Shown here: piece after piece, positions 5,454-48,570 of the stretch
How positions within the stretch are numbered: position 1 is the stretch's first letter
How the letters are laid out: each line of letters begins with the position of its first letter
From: Bacteroidales bacterium
Lineage (GTDB): Bacteria; Bacteroidota; Bacteroidia; Bacteroidales; UBA932
NCBI GenBank assembly: GCA_017557535.1
Contig: JAFYYM010000034.1
Location: 123,795 to 187,794, forward strand
Length of the DNA: 64,000 nt
Direction of reading: 5' to 3'
Translations under genes and position numbers: made by a program
Notes under the pieces: model-generated
What the model saw: the letters and a program-made list of their open reading frames with translations, nothing else
What the model was told of the DNA's origin: nothing
The model's database searches: none

Positions 5454-6478
5454 TGGCCCTCACTGTCGAGATAGACAAGCGTTCCGGTTTCTGTGGCGGG
5501 GTTATCCGCGCCATCAGCAAAGCCGAGGAGTTCCTGGACTCACACCCCGGGAAGAAGCTTTATTCCCTCGGGGCGATAGTCCACAATGAAGCCGAACTGG
5601 AAAGACTTGGCCGGAAGGGACTCGTGACCATCGGCCATGACGACATCGGCAATATTCAAGCCCCTGAGAATGAAACGGTTCTGATTAGGGCGCACGGCGA
5701 GCCGCCATCCACTTATAAGCTCACCCGAGAGGCTGGGATCAACCTCATAGATTGCACCTGCCCTGTCGTCCTGAAACTCCAGAAAGACATCCGCGACGTT
5801 TATTCACGCCTCAATGGCGGCGTGACCCGCTCCAGCGGCTCGACCGCCTCGCTTCGCTCGGCCCCACCGCTCGCTTCGCAAAGCGAAGCTCCGGTCCCCC
5901 CTCTTAACGTGCCGAGGGTGGCAATGGTCTCGCCATCTGGACAGGCCACGCCGCCGAGAGGGCAGATCATCATCTATGGGAAGATCGGTCATGCGGAGGT
6001 GCTGGGGCTGCTGGGGCAGGTAGGAGGTGACGCGGTGGTGATTGAGAATATGGACATGCTTCTCTCAGCGCTGGAGTCCGGGACTATCAGGACGGATGTC
6101 CCGCTGGAGATATTCTCACAGACAACAAAGAGTCCGACCGAATATTCCGAGATCTGCTCTGTCTTGTCCGAGAGGGCCAAAGCCGGACTGACCGTCCACA
6201 ACACGATTTGCAAGCAGGTCGCATCGAGGCATGAGGAACTCGCCGAGTTCGCCTCATCACACGACATAATCATTTTTGTGTCAGGAGTTTCCAGTTCCAA
6301 CGGAAAAGTCCTCTGCGACCTATGCCGCTCCAGGAATCCCAGAACCTATCACATCTCAGACCCGAAGGAGATAGATCCCTCCTGGTTCGGTCCAGATGAA
6401 AGCGTTGGTGTGTGTGGCGCCACCTCCACCCCCCACTGGCTTCTAGAGGAAGTCGCCCAGACAATATTATTTGCATGA
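5453..6478 (+). CDS. ispH: 4-hydroxy-3-methylbut-2-enyl diphosphate reductase with ~47-aa in-frame insertion
   Basis: GFCGGV, IVHN, RAHG, DCTCPVV, GHAEV, FSQTT, NTIC, SSNG, GATSTP motifs. Confidence 0.95.
   Translation: MALTVEIDKRSGFCGGVIRAISKAEEFLDSHPGKKLYSLGAIVHNEAELERLGRKGLVTIGHDDIGNIQAPENETVLIRAHGEPPSTYKLTREAGINLIDCTCPVVLKLQKDIRDVYSRLNGGVTRSSGSTASLRSAPPLASQSEAPVPPLNVPRVAMVSPSGQATPPRGQIIIYGKIGHAEVLGLLGQVGGDAVVIENMDMLLSALESGTIRTDVPLEIFSQTTKSPTEYSEICSVLSERAKAGLTVHNTICKQVASRHEELAEFASSHDIIIFVSGVSSSNGKVLCDLCRSRNPRTYHISDPKEIDPSWFGPDESVGVCGATSTPHWLLEEVAQTILFA
5816..5955. repeat. 140-nt palindromic element with terminal inverted repeats, in-frame in ispH
   Basis: Left GGCGGCGTGACCCGCTCCAG (5816-5835) pairs imperfectly with right CTGGACAGGCCACGCCGCC (5937-5955); internal perfect hairpin GCTTCGC-AAA-GCGAAGC (5873-5889). 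Confidence 0.8.
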
Positions 6479-10580: not shown

Positions 10581-11809
10581 TGCTCGTTGGCAAAGCCCCT
10601 TGCGGGTTGCGATACGCTGTGAGAAGGAGCGGAAGAGCTGTAGGCTACTGCTCCCTGACTATCAAATGCGGAACCAGGGACGAAGGTTCCCACCACAGTG
10701 GTATCGCCCACTTCACCGAGCACACAATATTCAAAGGCACATCTAAAAAGAGCGCCAAAGTCATCAACAGTTATCTTGATCGGCTTGGGGGCGATCTGAA
10801 CGCGTTCACCACCAAAGAGGAGATTGTACTCCACTCCACAGTATTGAAAGAGGACCTCGGGAAAGCAGCCGCATTGCTGCTGGAGCTAGCCACATGCCCC
10901 ATATTCCCGGAGGAGGAAATCTCGATAGAGAAAGGAGTCGTGATCGACGAGATAAGCTCTTACAAAGACTCCCCCGCCGATGATGTGTTCGACAAATTCG
11001 AAGAGACCCTTCTGGCTGGTCATCCCCTTGGGAGACCTATCCTCGGAACCGCTGCTAGCGTGAGGAAAATCTCCGCTGAAGAGCTGAGGGCATTTGTCAA
11101 AGAGCGTTTCACTCCCGGGAACATGGCTCTCGCGATTGTCGCTGACATTGATGAGAAAAAGATGGAGCAAGGGGTGCTGAGACTCTCCGAAAAAGTATTT
11201 GACGGCTCCTGGTCCGAATCACCAGAGCGTATTCTCTGCCCGGTGGACACCCCCGCCTTGTTCAAAAAGACCGTGGATAAAAGGCACCATGAGGTCAATG
11301 CGGTGATCGGAGGATTGGCTCCTTCCCTTTATGACCAGGAAGGTCGATTCGCGGCCATTCTCCTGGCCAACATTGTCGGGGGACCTGCCTCGAATTCCAA
11401 ACTCAATGAACTCTTGAGGGAAAGGAACGGATGGGTGTACGGTGTCGAGACCTCTTACACCCAATACTCCGACACTGGTGTGATGGCAATATCGATGGGC
11501 TGCGACCGTTCCAATCTGGAGAAATGCTTGAGAGGTGTGGATAAAGTGATAAAGAGAATACAAGACGAGCTTTTGTCAGACTCGGCCATGAGAGCAGCCA
11601 AGAAGCAGCTTCTTGGTCAACTGGCTATCAGCTCAGACAACGGAGAGACCCAATGCCTCTCCATGGGGAAAAGCCTTATTTCTTTTGGAAACGTTTCCAC
11701 TGACCTTCAGAACAAGGAAGCTATAGAGGCGGTCACGGCCGATCGTGTACGTGAATCCGCCATGAGAATATTCAACCCGGAAACTTTATCATCCTTGATT
11801 TTTTTATGA
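10580..11809 (+). CDS. M16 family (pitrilysin-like) zinc peptidase
   Basis: HFTEH inverted zinc motif, LNAFTTKE, VIDEI. Confidence 0.9.
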   Translation: MLVGKAPCGLRYAVRRSGRAVGYCSLTIKCGTRDEGSHHSGIAHFTEHTIFKGTSKKSAKVINSYLDRLGGDLNAFTTKEEIVLHSTVLKEDLGKAAALLLELATCPIFPEEEISIEKGVVIDEISSYKDSPADDVFDKFEETLLAGHPLGRPILGTAASVRKISAEELRAFVKERFTPGNMALAIVADIDEKKMEQGVLRLSEKVFDGSWSESPERILCPVDTPALFKKTVDKRHHEVNAVIGGLAPSLYDQEGRFAAILLANIVGGPASNSKLNELLRERNGWVYGVETSYTQYSDTGVMAISMGCDRSNLEKCLRGVDKVIKRIQDELLSDSAMRAAKKQLLGQLAISSDNGETQCLSMGKSLISFGNVSTDLQNKEAIEAVTADRVRESAMRIFNPETLSSLIFL

Positions 11810-43188: not shown

Positions 43189-45285
43189 ATGATTCCACGG
43201 GAGACGGTACAGAAGATTCTGGACACCGCGCAAGTCGAGGAAGTGGTGGCCGATTTCGTCTCGCTTAAGAAGCGCGGGGCGGAATGGTGGGGCTGTTGTC
43301 CTTTCCACAACGAGAAGACCCCCTCCTTCCATGTCGTTCCCGCGAGAGGAATATACTACTGCTTCGGTTGCCACAAAGGAGGATCCGCCGTGGGTTTCGT
43401 GATGGACCATGAGCACATGTCTTATCCGGATGCCCTGAGATATCTGGCAAAGAAATATAATATCGAGGTGGTTGAGGAAGAGCAGAGCGCCGAGGAACTA
43501 GCCGCCCGACAAAGAAACGAGAGCCTCTACCTCGTCTCGGAATTCGCCGAGGAATTCTTCAAGGAACAGCTCTCGAAAGGAGAGGGCAAAGCCGTGGGAC
43601 TCAATTATTTCCACAGCAGAGGTCTGGAGGATGCCACCATTGGGAAATATGGCCTGGGATGGGCTCCGTCCGACCGACACGCCTTCACAGACGCCGCCAA
43701 GGCTAAAGGATATAAGGACGAATATCTCCTTGAGACAGGACTCTGCGCCAAATACGACGACAAGCCCGACATCCATGACAGGTTTGTCGAAAGGGTCACC
43801 TTCCCTATCCATTCGATTAGCGGCAGGATCATCGGTTTCGGAGCAAGGACACTTAAATCAAAAGAGGAAGGGAAACCCTACGCCAAATACGTCAACTCCA
43901 AGGAGAGCGCCATCTATGTCAAGAATCAATCATTGTACGGAATATGGTTCGCTAAGGGCGAGATGGCCAAGAAAGACAAGTGTTTCCTTGTCGAAGGATA
44001 CCTGGATGTTCTCTCCATGCATCAGCTGGGAATCACCAACGTGGTGGCTTCCAGCGGTACCGCATTGACTGACGGGCAGATACGCCTTATAGGACGTTTC
44101 ACGAAGAACGTCACCATCATGTATGACGGTGACGAGGCCGGCGTCAAGGCCGCCCTTAGAGGTATCGACATGTTCCTACGCCAAGGAATGAACGTCAAGG
44201 TCGTGTTGATCCCGGACGGGGATGACCCTGACTCATACGCCCGGAAACACACTTTGGAGGAAGTGGAGGACTTCATCTCTGGCAACGAGCAGGATTTCGT
44301 GGACTTCCAGAGTTCCCTACTGCTAAGGGACACGGAGAATGATCCTCTCCGGCGCGCTGACGCGATAAATGAGATAGCCGACACTGTGGCCCAGATTTCG
44401 GACGGAGTCAAAAGGGAAACCTATATCGACTTCCTCAGTCGCAAGTTCGACATCCGGAGGACCGTCCTGGAGGATAGGGTCGGCTTGACAAGGACGAAAC
44501 TCTTAACCCAGACCGGACAGCAGTCCGAGCCTGACCGAGTCCATCCTCGCCCCACTGCGGCTGAGTACGGCCTAGGCTCGACTGCTGCTCCGGCTATCAC
44601 GCAAGATTCGGAGCGAAGCGACGCAGGGAGTCTGAGGGGAACGCCCCTCAGTCCCCCTAGGGGGCAAGGGGGGTTGACGTTTTCTTCCAGTGACGACCTA
44701 TCGTCACTGGAAGAGAACCCGATAATGGCAAAGGCTGAGCGGGATCTGCTGAGCTTCATCCTGACCTATGGCACCACCAGACTTGAGTTCCAAAGTGACT
44801 CTGAATTCTACACCGAGGATGAGGAAGATGTCCAGACAGTGTTCGAGTTCATTGGCCAAGCCATAGAGGCAGACGGTACCGTATTCGCCAACAAGGCTTA
44901 CCAGGACACCTATGACGCCTATTCGGAAGAGTATTATAATGGCTATTCCCAGAATGATATCGTGAGACATCTCATGGACGGCGAGGATAGGACGGTGGCA
45001 TTCGTCGCGGCTCAACTCTCGACAGAAGAGAGATACGACTTGTCCATCAAGAATCTCCGCGACGCCATGATGTCAAAGGGGTCATGGCTGACGAAATTCG
45101 TCCCCAAGTCAATCCTCGTATTCCAAGTCTGCCGCCTCGAGGACAAAGAGCACTCCCTTAAAGAAGAGCTTAGAGAAGCACAGGACATCGGGGACCAGAA
45201 CCGTGAGATGGAGATATTGAAGAGCCTGGTGAATCTGCGCAAAGCCATCAAAACCGTCAAAGTTCGCCTCGGACGGGAAAAATAG
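43189..45285 (+). CDS. dnaG: DNA primase with palindromic insertion in the linker
   Basis: CPFHNEKTPSF, CFGC, FGARTL, KYVNS, VEGYLDV, YDGDEAG, DPD. Confidence 0.96.
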   Translation: MIPRETVQKILDTAQVEEVVADFVSLKKRGAEWWGCCPFHNEKTPSFHVVPARGIYYCFGCHKGGSAVGFVMDHEHMSYPDALRYLAKKYNIEVVEEEQSAEELAARQRNESLYLVSEFAEEFFKEQLSKGEGKAVGLNYFHSRGLEDATIGKYGLGWAPSDRHAFTDAAKAKGYKDEYLLETGLCAKYDDKPDIHDRFVERVTFPIHSISGRIIGFGARTLKSKEEGKPYAKYVNSKESAIYVKNQSLYGIWFAKGEMAKKDKCFLVEGYLDVLSMHQLGITNVVASSGTALTDGQIRLIGRFTKNVTIMYDGDEAGVKAALRGIDMFLRQGMNVKVVLIPDGDDPDSYARKHTLEEVEDFISGNEQDFVDFQSSLLLRDTENDPLRRADAINEIADTVAQISDGVKRETYIDFLSRKFDIRRTVLEDRVGLTRTKLLTQTGQQSEPDRVHPRPTAAEYGLGSTAAPAITQDSERSDAGSLRGTPLSPPRGQGGLTFSSSDDLSSLEENPIMAKAERDLLSFILTYGTTRLEFQSDSEFYTEDEEDVQTVFEFIGQAIEADGTVFANKAYQDTYDAYSEEYYNGYSQNDIVRHLMDGEDRTVAFVAAQLSTEERYDLSIKNLRDAMMSKGSWLTKFVPKSILVFQVCRLEDKEHSLKEELREAQDIGDQNREMEILKSLVNLRKAIKTVKVRLGREK
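44512..44594. repeat. 83-nt hairpin element, copy 1 (in dnaG)
   Basis: 71/83 nt identical, ungapped, to 47938-48020; 18-bp outer stem with two single-base bulges. Confidence 0.9.
44611..44718. repeat. Cluster of hairpins in dnaG following the 83-nt element
   Basis: GAGCGAAGCGA (44611-44621); CTGAGGGG-AACG-CCCCTCAG (44632-44651); CCCCCTAGGGGG (44653-44664); perfect 14-bp stem 44683-44714. Confidence 0.75.
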
Positions 45286-45413
45286 CCGACCTTGGGTGTC
45301 ACAGCGGCCGGAGATGTGTATCCATTGAATATCAATTGTTTATCTTTCTGATTATCAACAACGAAACGTCTCCCGCTTGAATGACGGGCAGTCCAAAGAG
45401 TCAGGGGCGAGGG

Positions 45414-46178
45414 TCAGAACTTGAAGGAGAGGCCGCCGGTGAAGGAAAAGAACCAGCGGAGGGGCTGCTTTAAAGAGGTTTTGGTCCCAATGTCAGAGCC
45501 GTTCTCGAACCGTACGGATTCGGTGTTGACGATGTAATTCCTGGTCAGGTTGTAGTGGATGGCCGGACTGAGTTTCAGGTCAAACCGCCAGAGGCGATAG
45601 TTCAGGCAAGTTCCGGCATCAAGGGTGAGGGAAAAGCGTCCGTTCCTCTCAGTCCATGTCCGGTCGGTATTCAAATAACCCGGTCCCCAACTGGCCGTCG
45701 AGACCGGAGAACTCTCTCCGGACACATAACCCGGTGTCACCCCTGTGAAGAACTCAGCTTGGCTGAACAAGTTGGCGATGAAAGCGGCCAGCGCTCCCCG
45801 AAGAGGGTTGGAATATCCCATAATGGCCTCATAACCAAAAGTTTCTCCAGCAGCGATCGCTCCGCTTCTCACCCGTCCGTCCGTGTTTCTGGCCGGAGTG
45901 CGATAGGCGAAGGCTATCGGTATTCCGAAAGCATTGTCAACTTCGGCAACACGGGAAGCCAGTTGAAATCCCGTCCGGTATCCTATTCCGGTCGAGTAAA
46001 AATGCCCGTAACTCACCCCAAACAATACATCTGATTCCTGTCCTTTGTACATGGGAGTATAGACACCGGCATAGAAGCCGATGTCATCCGACAAGTTCGA
46101 GCGCTTTTCTGCCGCGGTCTGGGCATTGGCGCAGAAGGAAAGAATCAGCAAAGACGGGATAATAATGAGGTGTCTCAT
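45414..46178 (-). CDS. Hypothetical outer-membrane beta-barrel-like protein
   Basis: Signal peptide, alternating aromatic/glycine strands, C-terminal ...GGLSFKF. Confidence 0.65.
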   Translation of the reverse strand: MRHLIIIPSLLILSFCANAQTAAEKRSNLSDDIGFYAGVYTPMYKGQESDVLFGVSYGHFYSTGIGYRTGFQLASRVAEVDNAFGIPIAFAYRTPARNTDGRVRSGAIAAGETFGYEAIMGYSNPLRGALAAFIANLFSQAEFFTGVTPGYVSGESSPVSTASWGPGYLNTDRTWTERNGRFSLTLDAGTCLNYRLWRFDLKLSPAIHYNLTRNYIVNTESVRFENGSDIGTKTSLKQPLRWFFSFTGGLSFKF

Positions 46179-46262
46179 ATCGTTTTGACTTGTGAACTTG
46201 CTTTATGCAGATGCGTGAGGCAACAAATAGTGTTCCATGTCAAAACATCCGAGTGTTTTTGC

Positions 46263-46270
46263 TACCTTTG
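46263..46270 (+). promoter_or_regulatory. -7 box for metG
   Basis: TACCTTTG, 20 nt before ATG 46291. Confidence 0.6.
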
Positions 46271-46290
46271 CAGTTTGAAGTCAATTGTAT

Positions 46291-48570
46291 ATGGAAAAGA
46301 ATTTCAAGAGAACGCTTGTGACCTGCGCGTTGCCGTACGCCAACGGCCCCGTGCATATCGGCCATCTGGCCGGAGTCTATGTGCCTGCCGACATATTCGT
46401 GAGATACAAGAGGATGAAGGGCGAGGATGTCCTTTTCATCTGCGGCTCAGACGAGCATGGTGTGCCGATCACAATCAAGGCAAGGGCTAATGGTGTGACT
46501 CCGCAGGATATCGTGGACAAGTACCACGGCATCATAAAGGACTCGTTCACAAGGCTGGGGATCAATTTCGACATTTATTCCCGCACCACCTCCAAGGTGC
46601 ATCACAAGAACGCCTCTGAGTTCTTCCGCGAGCTCTACGACAAGGGCAAGTTCATCACCAAGGAGAGCGAGCAGTACTATGACCCTGAGGCCAAGACTTT
46701 CCTGGCCGACAGGTACATTGTCGGCACTTGCCCCAAGTGCGGCAATCCGAACGCCTATGGCGACCAGTGCGAGAAGTGCGGAAGCACCCTTAGTCCCGAG
46801 GAACTCCTCAACCCGAAGTCCAAACTCAGCGGCGCCGAGCCGATAAAGAAGAAGACCACACACTGGTATCTTCCTCTGGACAAGTACGAGCCTTGGCTCC
46901 GTGAATGGATTCTCGATAACCACAAGGAGTGGAGGTCCAATGTCTACGGCCAGTGCAAGTCATGGCTGGATGGCGGACTTCAGCCTAGAGCCGTCAGCCG
47001 CGACCTGGACTGGGGTGTCCCAGTGCCTGTGGAGGGTGCGGAAGGCAAGGTACTCTATGTATGGTTTGACGCCCCGATTGGCTATATATCCAACACTCAG
47101 GAGCTTCTGCCACAGAGTTGGGAGAAATGGTGGAAGGATGATGACACCCGTCTCATCCATTTCATCGGCAAGGACAATATCGTCTTCCATTGCATCGTCT
47201 TCCCTTCGATGCTGAAGGCCCGCGAAAACTACATCCTTCCGGACAATGTGCCTTCCAATGAGTTCCTCAACCTCGAGAGCGACAAGATCTCGACCTCCCG
47301 CAACTGGGCTGTCTGGCTCAATGAATATGTCGACGACTTCCCCGGCCAGGAGGACACCCTTCGTTACGTTCTCTGCGCCAATGCTCCCGAGACCAAGGAT
47401 AATGACTTCACCTGGAAGGATTTCCAGCAGAGGAACAACAGCGAGCTGGTGGCCATCCTGGGCAATTTCGTCAACAGGGCAGTTGTCCTGACACAGAAAT
47501 ATTTCGGAGGCAAGGTGCCGGAGAACCTGAAGCCGGAAGCTATTGATGCTGAGACACTCTCGCAACTTCCCGAGCTTCGCCGAAGCCTCGAGGCTAATCT
47601 TGAAGGCTTCCATTTCAGGGAGGCTCTGAAAGACGCCATGAACATAGCCCGCATTGGTAACAAATACATCTCTGACACCGAACCTTGGAAGGTCGCCAAG
47701 TCCGACATGGACAGGACCGCCTCGATCCTCTACACCTCGCTGCAGATATGCGCCAATCTCGCTATCGCATTTGAGCCGTTCACTCCGTTCTCGGCAGAGA
47801 AACTGAGAGGGATACTGAAGGTTGGATTGGACGCTGGTTTCGACCATCGCTCCGGCGAGGGTGAGCCAACGGTGAACTTCTACAAGCCAGGCGAATGCCG
47901 CGCACTCCATACGGCCGGACAGCCGCTAACTGAAACGGCCGGACAGCCGTTCGAGCACGGCCGCGTCCATCCTCGCTACGCTGCGGCTGAGTACGGCCTA
48001 AGCTCGACGGCTGCTCCGGCCAACTCGGCTGAATGTCCGGTGCTGACATGGGACGACTTGGGACGTGGGGATATCCTGCCGGTCGGACATGAGCTCGGTG
48101 AGGCTGTCCTGCTGTTCAGCAAGATCGAGGATAATGTCATCGATGCCCAGATCGACAAATTGAACGCCACCAAGCAAGCCAATGAGGCTGCCGCCAAGGC
48201 CGCTGAGGCGGAGGAAGCCGCCCATAAGGTCGAGCCTCAGAAGCCTGAGGTCACCTTTGAGGACTTCGGAGCTATGGATATCCGTACCGCCACCGTGCTA
48301 GAGGCTGAACGGGTTCCCAAAACTGACAAGCTCCTCAAACTCACGATCGACACCGGTATTGACCAAAGGACGATAGTCTCGGGCATAGCCGAGTACTATT
48401 CCCCGGAAGACATGCTCGGAAAGCAAATCTGCATCCTGGCTAACCTGAAGCCCAGGATGATCCGCGGCATCGAGTCCAAGGGAATGATCCTTATGGCAAA
48501 ACAGGGTGACGGGACAATGCGTCTCGTCACCCCGAGTGAAGCCGTGTCAAACGGCGCTGTTATCGGCTGA
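46291..48570 (+). CDS. metG: Methionyl-tRNA synthetase with ~70-aa insertion and C-terminal tRNA-binding domain
   Basis: [11 protein letters not shown] (HIGH), GSDEHG, CPKC..CEKC knuckle, YVWFDA, KISTS (KMSKS-like), GIESKGMIL. Confidence 0.96.
47938..48020. repeat. 83-nt hairpin element, copy 2 (in metG)
   Basis: GCCGGACAGCCGTTCGAGC ... GCTCGACGGCTGCTCCGGC arms; 71/83 identical to dnaG copy; same reading frame. Confidence 0.9.

Follow-up and report, generated by a model that had tools for sequence, protein, structure and literature searches.

An apparently mobile hairpin element carried in frame by dnaG, metG and other genes in a genus of rumen Bacteroidales

The dnaG and metG genes encode proteins with unrelated functions, primase and methionyl-tRNA synthetase, and yet in the 64,000-nucleotide stretch of Bacteroidales DNA analyzed here (the window) the two genes were found to contain the same 83-nt hairpin. 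An earlier note on this DNA, made from the sequence alone, had suggested that selection acted on the hairpin itself, as in a mobile or REP-like element, and not on a protein motif. We therefore asked what this shared block is and how it came to lie inside two such genes. Our conclusion is that both hairpins belong to one non-autonomous selfish DNA element that forms a hairpin, is apparently mobile and has increased in copy number in a single genus of rumen Bacteroidales. For the core of this reading, a mobile hairpin element that is defined by its structure and resides in frame within genes, we put the probability at about 0.85, a figure that does not extend to the identity of any enzyme that moves it.

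The two copies in dnaG and metG

The two copies align without gaps at 71 of 83 positions, with a BLAST E value of 4e-22 against the whole genome, and both begin on a codon boundary (phase 0) of long open reading frames (Table 1), as the earlier note had described. Both fold into long hairpins in which each arm has a bulge of a single base (at about positions 13 to 15 and 77). Whichever strand is folded, the computed energy falls between −44 and −51 kcal/mol (z scores of −4.2 to −5.2), and none of 200 shuffled sequences matched it. The base pair that the note had singled out as compensatory, 11:72, is indeed A-T in dnaG and C-G in metG.

Table 1. Positions in the window of the two hairpin copies, their apices, a neighboring relic and the host genes
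Feature	Position	Strand	Description
Host gene dnaG (primase)	43189..45285	+	Reading frame intact, 698 aa; Pfam DnaG primase
Hairpin copy in dnaG linker	44512..44594	+	Sense, phase 0, partly decayed; CM R1 85 bits
Apex, dnaG copy	44538..44567	+	Several substitutions; reads CTCGCCCCACTGCGG
Host gene metG (methionyl-tRNA synthetase)	46285..48570	+	Reading frame intact; Pfam
First 12 bases of the element, as a relic or partial duplicate	47914..47925	+	GCCGGACAGCCG
Hairpin copy in metG linker	47938..48020	+	Sense, phase 0, core intact; CM R1 103 bits
Conserved apex, metG copy	47964..47993	+	Element positions 27-56; reads CGTCCATCCTCGCTACGCTGCGGCTGAGTA

The dnaG copy lies in a hypervariable linker, with the DnaB-binding region on one side and the C-terminal domain on the other, and the same place is occupied by a copy of the element in other species. 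Its decay is evident at the apex, which reads GCCCCAC where GCTNCGC is expected. The metG block is missing from the metG genes of the closest sampled relative and 11 other relatives; the closest sampled orthologue, at 85% amino acid identity, does not have it. Four other species carry the element at the identical metG nucleotide, one of them in inverted orientation. The relic of the left arm, which precedes the complete metG copy by 12 nt, falls within a 15-nt direct repeat (positions 47911 to 47925 are the same as 47935 to 47949) and is common to one other species (L056). Comparable left-arm relics adjoin the copies in a GH2 gene and at C104:16380. The likely start codon of metG is the ATG at position 46291.

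At the protein level, the peptide encoded by one of the two copies is TGQQSEPDRVHPRPTAAEYGLGSTAAPA, and alignments place the inserts in linkers or variable loops. The region of MetG that contains the insert may be unstructured, since the pLDDT is below 50 over residues 521 to 582 of an AlphaFold model, a model too poor as a whole (mean pLDDT of 55) to support more than this.

The shared block would be an assembly or binning artefact if either site, or both, held a chimeric join, a concern of the earlier note, or a repeat that had been collapsed, and the genome is indeed a draft of 139 contigs with an estimated contamination of 5%. However, both host reading frames are intact across the sites, and the element has the same positions in metG and dnaG of other species whose genomes were assembled independently and in separate studies. 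We consider the probability of an artefact to be negligible.

Family size and conservation of structure

The dnaG and metG hairpins proved to belong to a large family. With nhmmer we found about 29 copies in the 3.4-Mb genome. Other rumen Bacteroidales contribute at least 127 more, from loci in their genomes, and the core pattern was matched by no fewer than 120 metagenome contigs. Of the 201 species of the genus that were sampled, 20 have the family, which was absent from all 166 other genera sampled. Two longer variants, of 92 nt (+9) and 107 nt (+24), both additions being multiples of three, have also multiplied. Nothing in phage, plasmid or viral collections matched the element, and there is therefore no evidence of a phage or plasmid vehicle. 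No Rfam 15 covariance model matched the dnaG or metG copy down to an E value of 1, and we found no published description of this element in the literature.

The single compensatory pair of the earlier note turned out to be one of many. Across 46 diverse copies, pair 11:72 is CG in 36, AU in 4, UA in 3, GC in 1, UG in 1 and unpaired in 1. In the same copies, 88.5% of cells are paired, compared with 73.9 ± 0.7% in shuffled alignments, and none of 500 shuffles reached the observed value; 21 of 29 pairs vary on both sides, and slid controls pair at no more than 43%. The analysis of 121 copies agreed with this result. Compensatory changes were found at all 18 pairs of the outer stem, the columns of which have a mean pairwise identity of 51 to 61%.

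Three layers can be distinguished in the element. The outer stem, of about 19 bp, is free in sequence, but its pairing is kept, together with two fixed one-base bulges, and it terminates in covarying ends of the form (G/T/A)CCGG...CCGG(C/A). The inner stem is conserved as GGCCG/CGGCC. It carries an asymmetric, nearly invariant apex of 28 nt (positions 29 to 56), within which only positions 34 and 41 vary, both among 24 of the genome's own copies and among 121 copies overall; positions 27 and 28 are less conserved. The arms evolve faster than the flanking genes, whereas conservation of the apex exceeds that of the coding sequence on either side. Read on the opposite strand, the apex of the metG copy contains GCGTAGC, an instance of the GCGNAGC mini-hairpin motif as given in PMC13037366, and the N of the antisense GCG-N-AGC is the only variable apex position inside the motif.

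Reading frames, orientation and sites of insertion

The host genes are real genes, as judged from Pfam matches, and include ftsK, parC, priA, atpG, atpB, truB, ksgA and ispE as well as dnaG and metG; they have no function in common. An open frame of at least 150 aa spans 26 of the 29 copies, compared with 91% of random windows, and the intragenic share of about 90% is equal to that of random positions. Some copies are intergenic, and no transposase was found among their neighbors.

The earlier note had described the element as occupying the same frame. This holds for dnaG and metG and for 12 of the 13 best copies in the genome, which encode the same peptide in phase 0, but it fails as a rule for the family. 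Across the genus, five frames and both orientations are used to read the element, and the resulting peptides are unrelated (SILASLRLSTA is one example from an alternative frame); the element lies antisense to the host gene in 58 cases and sense in 49. The wider sample thus rejects a universal sense, phase-0 bias. Since five frames and both orientations are in use, it is a DNA or RNA structure that is conserved and not a peptide. Copies have 3.5 of 6 frames free of stop codons, no more than shuffled sequences do (3.4), and so there is no sign of special coding adaptation. It is only in the core that five of the six frames are open. For annotation, the inserts inflate protein lengths in rumen metagenome-assembled genomes and create apparent "shared motifs" between unrelated proteins.

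These observations bear on two explanations in which the product of the host gene, and not the DNA, would matter. One is that a conserved 27-residue peptide (…GRVHxRxAAAEYGL…) has been selected as a protein module, for a binding or cleavage site or something similar, as the phase-0 peptide common to the 12 copies might suggest. We regard this as extremely improbable, because the same DNA is read in five frames across the genus, the arms alter the flanking residues freely while complementarity is kept, and Pfam found no domain within the inserts. The other, also very improbable, is that the hairpin is a functional RNA structure in host mRNAs (a stability, processing or translation-pausing signal) that hosts have recruited repeatedly. 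The sense strand does fold strongly, and the apex is conserved beyond the flanking coding sequence; against this, antisense copies are about as frequent as sense copies, orientation varies between species at a single site, Rfam gave no match, the hosts lack a common function and some copies lie between genes.

Evidence that the element inserts comes from comparisons between species. In the one clean filled/empty pair, on which the result for target duplication is based, the difference is an insertion of 81 nt (27 codons) with no target duplication. Inspection of the flanks revealed neither a target motif nor a common repeat. Copies at the same site in related species often have opposite orientations and different arms, with the junction at the same base, and 23 of 54 same-site comparisons were inverted. 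When comparisons with apparent register shifts were set aside, 39 remained, and in these arm identity was 72.8% for inverted copies and 85.8% for co-oriented copies at equal flank identity (p = 0.0008). The finding of different arms in opposite orientation at the same nucleotide suggests that sites are re-used, as "slots".

Simpler origins of the inverted copies were considered. A simple in-place flip as their sole cause is disfavored because inverted same-site copies have the more diverged arms, and a flip of the center alone is excluded because the bulge pattern turns together with the core. That the arms are copied from the target, as an inverted target duplication, was rejected because identical arms travel to many unrelated genes.

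Templated repair within the palindrome, a process of mutation and not of selection, could be part of what maintains stem complementarity. Taken further, quasipalindrome correction by template switching, together with ectopic gene conversion via the arms, might account for the family with no dedicated enzyme and no structural selection. The arms of one copy can pair with another copy in either orientation, which could explain both the inversions and the homogeneous core, and no transposase partner has been proved. However, gene conversion needs a resident homologous copy and so cannot seed new sites in unrelated genes, as the 81-nt insertion requires; the arms are only about 20 bp long and contain mismatches; and the two bulges are conserved where correction would have removed them. 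Blind repair also accounts less well than recognition of the apex for an apex that is invariant on fast-evolving arms, and we judge the repair-and-conversion alternative to be improbable. The size of the family, its covariation, its use of frames and orientations and the polarity of insertion instead support the proposal of the earlier note that selection has acted on a mobile or REP-like hairpin. Neither of the outcomes that the note had named as fatal to its proposal, a chimeric assembly or a mere pair of copies lacking covariation, was obtained.

Possible mobilization and relation to known systems

If the hairpin is a mobile element, its mobility would require that a single strand fold. An enzyme acting in trans and specific for structure would recognize the invariant apex on whatever stable stem presents it. 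Such an enzyme would account for the fact that the lineages leaving copies are those with compensated stems and intact apices. Genic copies would survive only where 27 extra stop-free residues are tolerated, and translation would turn the insert into a floppy loop. Landing would be favored at sites that are or once were occupied, so that copies at these slots would be replaced over time and not simply inherited.

As to the enzyme, a RAYT-like HUH nuclease is a weak lead as the mobilizer. In raw counts that ignore phylogeny and completeness, a Y1-like match was found in 19 of 20 genomes with the element and 107 of 181 without it, and a C56-type homologue in 11 of 20 and 37 of 181, respectively; a genome that is 98% complete and has seven copies (G199) is a counter-example, with no C56-type homologue. 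The 83-nt element flanks none of the four RAYT-like genes of the present genome, the nearest copy being 3 kb away, and a REPtron arrangement was not found there. Three of the four have their own flanking hairpin repeats, distinct from this element, and a second repeat family lies in the downstream flank of the fourth. That second family, found just downstream of the C56-type gene, has the motif A-GCGNAGC-GA in common with the element. In another genome (L031), two short variants lie 200 nt downstream of a RAYT-like open reading frame. Searches with nhmmer and a covariance model for an autonomous parent element returned short copies only.

It is possible, but rather doubtful, that the enzyme is a RAYT-like HUH (Y1) nuclease and that it recognizes the antisense strand, with the d(GCGNAGC) mini-hairpin at its tip. 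Similarly tentative is the fuller proposal of an active single-strand-hairpin transposon whose d(GCGNAGC) apex is read by an enzyme of the RAYT-like HUH class and which returns to fixed in-frame slots. If this were true, copies would be exchanged in place, rewriting a 27-residue loop in essential genes without the gene ever being broken, which would amount to a natural in-frame cassette-exchange system. The invariant apex is a defined candidate recognition site, which makes the question of what moves such elements testable, as are the repeated use of particular sites and the extent to which insertions have shaped linkers.

Among known systems, the miniature inverted-repeat elements (MITEs) derived from DDE insertion sequences, such as Correia, ERIC and QMITE1 of Coxiella (PMC10969869, PMC5896051), are likewise small non-autonomous repeats with inverted ends that sometimes lie in frame within genes. 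MITEs, however, preserve their terminal inverted repeats in sequence, make a target-site duplication and have a parent insertion sequence (PMC10969869, PMC5896051), whereas for the element described here no conserved terminal repeat sequence, no target-site duplication in the one clean pair and no parent insertion sequence was found.

REPs and REPINs are, like this element, structure-defined palindromic repeats that are thought to act as single-stranded hairpins and make no target duplication, and RAYT-like genes, the partners of REPs in REPtrons, are present in nearly all genomes carrying this element. [quoted passage not shown] REPs, however, are 20 to 40 nt long and mostly extragenic, have a GTAG or CGTC foot tag and flank a RAYT gene (PMC3333891, PMC6006769, PMC8266576, PMC3733652). 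In contrast, the present element is 83 nt long, about 90% intragenic and devoid of either tag, it adjoins no RAYT-like gene in this genome, and its conservation sits in the apex and not in the stem. The d(GCGNAGC) sequence is described in PMC13037366 as an extraordinarily stable DNA mini-hairpin, a structural motif of oligonucleotides and not a genetic element; the antisense apex reads GCG-N-AGC and may form the same mini-hairpin here.

The closest analogue, although the element is probably not a member of the group, is the Rickettsia palindromic elements (RPEs; Ogata et al. 2000, 2002, summarized in PMC10969869), which are in-frame palindromes of about 100 to 150 nt in Rickettsia genes. Coding palindromes inside essential genes have hitherto been treated as a peculiarity of Rickettsia, and the same behavior is now seen in an unrelated, free-living gut lineage, with richer data: hundreds of copies in some twenty species, and occupied, empty, inverted and relic states at individual sites. 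Both are short hairpin-forming repeats, and both lie in frame in many unrelated housekeeping genes that stay intact and gain a peptide, a predicted one in the present case. They differ in host, one rumen Bacteroidales genus as against Rickettsia, and in length, 83 nt as against about 100 to 150. Common descent is unlikely, given that the element is confined to one Bacteroidales genus, a judgment made on distribution and not on a comparison of the sequences. Compared with RPEs, the element is further distinguished by its invariant apex on a free, covarying stem, by its use of both orientations and five frames, and by the re-use of the same site in either orientation by related species.

The hairpin and its conserved structure

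The earlier note had described an 83-nt hairpin shared by dnaG and metG, and this observation was confirmed in all its details. The two copies were identical at 71 of 83 bases with no gaps, and each began on a codon boundary of a long intact ORF. As claimed, pair 11:72 was A-T in dnaG but C-G in metG, and on either strand both copies folded into a hairpin with one single-base bulge per arm (−44 to −51 kcal/mol). Folding z scores were −4.2 to −5.2, and none of 200 shuffles folded equally well.

The dnaG copy encodes the peptide TGQQSEPDRVHPRPTAAEYGLGSTAAPA and lies in a hypervariable linker where DnaG orthologues cannot be aligned. The metG copy encodes 28 residues in the linker joining the anticodon-binding domain to the C-terminal tRNA-binding domain. 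This entire block was missing from MetG of the closest sampled relative (85% identical) and from 11 further MetG orthologues. An AlphaFold model of MetG, with a whole-model mean pLDDT of only 55, fell below 50 at residues 521 to 582 (the insert region), hinting that this region may be unstructured. The same linker holds, 5′ of the element, a 31-residue stretch that is single-copy in the window's genome and absent from three sampled orthologues (genomes G014, G012, and G030); this stretch could represent either an earlier insertion or linker sequence particular to the lineage.

Element positions run from 1 to 83 in the 5′ to 3′ direction of sense copies. Among 24 ungapped copies of the window's genome, chosen independently of the search pattern, positions 29 to 56 were conserved in at least 21, with two exceptions: position 34 was either C or T, and position 41 could be T, C, or A. 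Outer-stem columns were just 51 to 61% identical among copies, yet 81 to 87% of their cells paired. In an alignment of 46 sequences, 88.5% of cells paired versus 73.9 ± 0.7 in shuffles, none of 500 reaching the observed value. Of the 29 pairs, 21 had changed on both sides, among them every one of the 18 outer pairs, although such counts overstate independent events because one evolutionary event is counted through several sequences. Sliding the partner by 1 to 3 columns as a control lowered pairing to 27 to 43%. Given the effect size and these controls, the covariation is hardly in doubt. Entire arms varied among copies yet still paired, for example, GATGGCACACCGCCTGTCCC with GGGACAGCGGCGATGCCATC. 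The antisense apex reads GCG-N-AGC, N corresponding to variable position 41. A DNA mini-hairpin of extraordinary stability has been described for GCGNAGC (PMC13037366), and such a d(GCGNAGC) mini-hairpin may form in the antisense apex of the element.

Copy family, distribution, and host genes

A profile search found about 29 copies in the window's genome, a 3.38-Mb draft of 139 contigs with 51% G+C. We also scanned one genome per prokaryotic species with a 21-base pattern taken from the element's conserved core, which matched at least 109 loci. Nearly all of the matches listed were MAGs of rumen Bacteroidales, one being Candidatus Cryptobacteroides, and the profile confirmed at least 127 copies in the matched loci. 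The profile failed to confirm two matches, in an Arthrobacter and a Thermoanaerobaculia genome, a number close to chance expectation. The core pattern was present in at least 120 metagenome contigs; the element had no match among viral contigs, phage records, or plasmid records and corresponded to no Rfam family. A covariance model trained on 46 diverse copies detected the element in 20 species out of the 201 sampled from the window's genus, three of these genomes carrying at least 22 copies each, whereas 166 other genera of the order yielded no hit. It was not found in the 24 closest sampled relatives of the window's genome. Variants of 92 and 107 nt, with 9 and 24 additional bases in the apex (both multiples of three), had themselves multiplied in some genomes.

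Open frames of at least 150 codons spanned 26 of the 29 copies in the window's genome, and the value for random 83-base windows was 91%, so genes are not avoided at all. By Pfam, the hosts include genes for DNA replication and chromosome handling (primase, PriA, FtsK, and topoisomerase IV subunit A), translation and RNA modification (MetRS, TruB, and two copies in KsgA), and glycoside hydrolases (GH2, GH31, and GH95), together with IspE, TldD, CitX, a CitC/CitG fusion, peptidase U32, an Fe-S oxidoreductase, a HAD hydrolase, and a ComEA-like protein. Among energy genes, that for ATP synthase gamma, an intact frame of 358 codons, carries two oppositely oriented copies, and a third copy lies nearby in the a-subunit gene.

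One copy from another species (L065) was missing from the corresponding site, C104:16380, of the window's genome. The two sites differed by 81 nt (27 codons), and the target was not duplicated in this one clean comparison. The flanks of copies had no common motif.

Reading frames and turnover at shared sites

The orientation was sense and the phase 0 in 12 of the 13 best copies of the window's genome. For copies of other genomes lying in frames of at least 150 codons, counts by phase were 41, 7, and 1 in the sense orientation and 32, 22, and 4 in the antisense orientation. The core TGA closes one sense frame. We rejected a peptide motif because the same DNA is used in several frames and both orientations, giving unrelated peptides (e.g., AVLSRSEARMDAA). 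Stop-free frames numbered 3.5 of 6 per copy versus 3.4 in dinucleotide shuffles, so the counts lend no support to an element specially built for coding. The simplest explanation for in-frame survival is selection against gene disruption. The copy family, compensatory stem changes, varied frames, and 81-nt insertion support the interpretation in the earlier note, a selected hairpin of a mobile or REP-like element rather than a protein motif.

Mapping the flanks of other species' copies onto the window's genome gave 54 same-place comparisons with both genomes occupied. Mean identity was 81% in flanks, 75% in arms, and 90 to 95% in the core, the last figure being raised in part by the use of a core pattern to find the other genomes. 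Orientation was opposite in 23 of the 54 pairs, with junctions at the identical base (examples are in metG and the Fe-S oxidoreductase, GH2, and ComEA-like genes). The bulge pattern reverses together with the core, which means that inversion affects the entire element, not the centre alone. In the 39 comparisons kept once those with apparent register shifts were dropped, arm identity was 72.8% for inverted and 85.8% for co-oriented copies at equal flank identity (p = 0.0008). The more diverged arms of inverted copies suggest that copies at a site are replaced or re-inserted, not simply flipped.

At one "empty" intergenic site of the window's genome, a mini-palindrome, GCCGACCG/TCCGGT, remains, and the same site in three other species holds full copies with different but mutually compensated arms. 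Together with the inverted copies and left-arm relics, this mini-palindrome suggests that such "slots" may be used repeatedly. A partial antisense core, agcgagaatggacgcagcc, about 20 nt 3′ of the full copy in a GH2 orthologue (L052), again suggests that insertions were layered at a single site.

Other repeat families lie close by. A second in-frame family (CGGAGCGAAGCGAC...GAGTCTGAGGGGAACGCCCCTCAGTC) has the motif A-GCGNAGC-GA in common with the 83-nt element, where it lies in the antisense apex. A third, found as an insert in ispH, has more than 25 copies in the window's genome. Several of these adjoin 83-nt copies, so a number of element families share linkers as hot spots.

Coordinates of the element, its hosts, and neighbouring features (C, contigs of the window's genome)
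Feature	Location	Remarks
dnaG (DnaG primase)	window 43189-45285	host ORF, Pfam
dnaG copy	window 44512-44594	(+)
metG (methionyl-tRNA synthetase)	window 46285-48570	host ORF, Pfam
metG copy	window 47938-48020	(+)
metG 31-residue stretch	window 47800-47913	
Outer stem	positions 1-19 with 65-83	single-base bulges at 13 and 77
Inner stem	positions 22-26 with 57-61	GGCCG/CGGCC
Asymmetric apex	positions 27-56	
ATP synthase gamma copies	C31:10443-10525; 10938-11020	
ATP synthase a copy	C31:15188	
Left-arm relic	metG 47914-47925	beside full copy
Left-arm relic	nine bases before GH2 copy	
Left-arm relic	C104:16380	"empty" site
Second family	window 44605-44678	just 3′ of dnaG copy
Second family	C42:9786-9859; C27:25255-25302; C22:8117-8160	
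Second family	C28:8384-8456	in tldD, adjoining an 83-nt copy
Second family	C56:61262-61310	directly downstream of RAYT-like HUH ORF
Third family	window 5816-5955	ispH insert, 140 nt
Third family	C127:100187-100264	beside ftsK copy
RAYT-like HUH/Y1 ORFs	C9:215837-216775; C95:90497-91624; C24:385-1299; C56:60115-61164	~300-376 aa
Repeats of C9 ORF	C9:215701-215787; 216828-216914	

Mobilisation and comparison with known systems

The existence, structure, and in-frame intragenic lifestyle of the element are well supported. It is a multiplied hairpin with compensated structure and an invariant apex, inserted as 81 nt without duplication, tolerated in linkers, found in a single genus, and turned over at shared sites. 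A structure-specific trans-acting enzyme would read the apex on the folded single strand.

Four ORFs of the window's genome resemble RAYT genes (for HUH, or Y1, nucleases): they have the HUH and tyrosine motifs and a long C-terminal tail. On both sides of three of these ORFs lie repeats of ~75 to 90 nt, peculiar to each, with distinct hairpins, none being the 83-nt element (those of the C9 ORF read GCCATGTGTGCCA...TGGCACACATGGC); this is a REPtron-like arrangement of other repeat families. A Y1-like match was present in 19 of 20 element-positive versus 107 of 181 negative genomes (Fisher p = 0.001), and homologues of the C56:60235-61164 subtype in 11 of 20 versus 37 of 181 (p = 0.0015), phylogeny being ignored in both tests. 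The C56 gene is followed by a copy of the second repeat family, which has the motif in common with the 83-nt element. In another Bacteroidales MAG (L031), a RAYT-like ORF (934-1827) is followed after 200 nt by two tandem short variants of the element, intergenic (2043-2163) and with a slightly different core, GTCACTCAGCCGCAGCGAAGCGAGGATTGGACGTAG. Against a HUH nuclease, no REPtron arrangement of the 83-nt element was found in the window's genome, and the nearly complete, element-positive genome G199 is without the C56 subtype. We consider it unlikely that a HUH nuclease is involved in mobilising the 83-nt element.

REPs are short, tagged, and extragenic and flank a RAYT gene, and DDE-type MITEs have conserved terminal repeats, a target duplication, and a parent insertion sequence; the 83-nt element differs from both in these features. 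A full-text literature search found no account of such elements in Bacteroidales. Rickettsia palindromic elements are described as palindromic repeats lying in frame in many housekeeping genes, by a mechanism not known (PMC10969869). The 83-nt element behaves in the same way, although its host group is unrelated and the likeness drawn is one of behaviour. We therefore file it as a probable analogue of the Rickettsia palindromic elements, not as a member.
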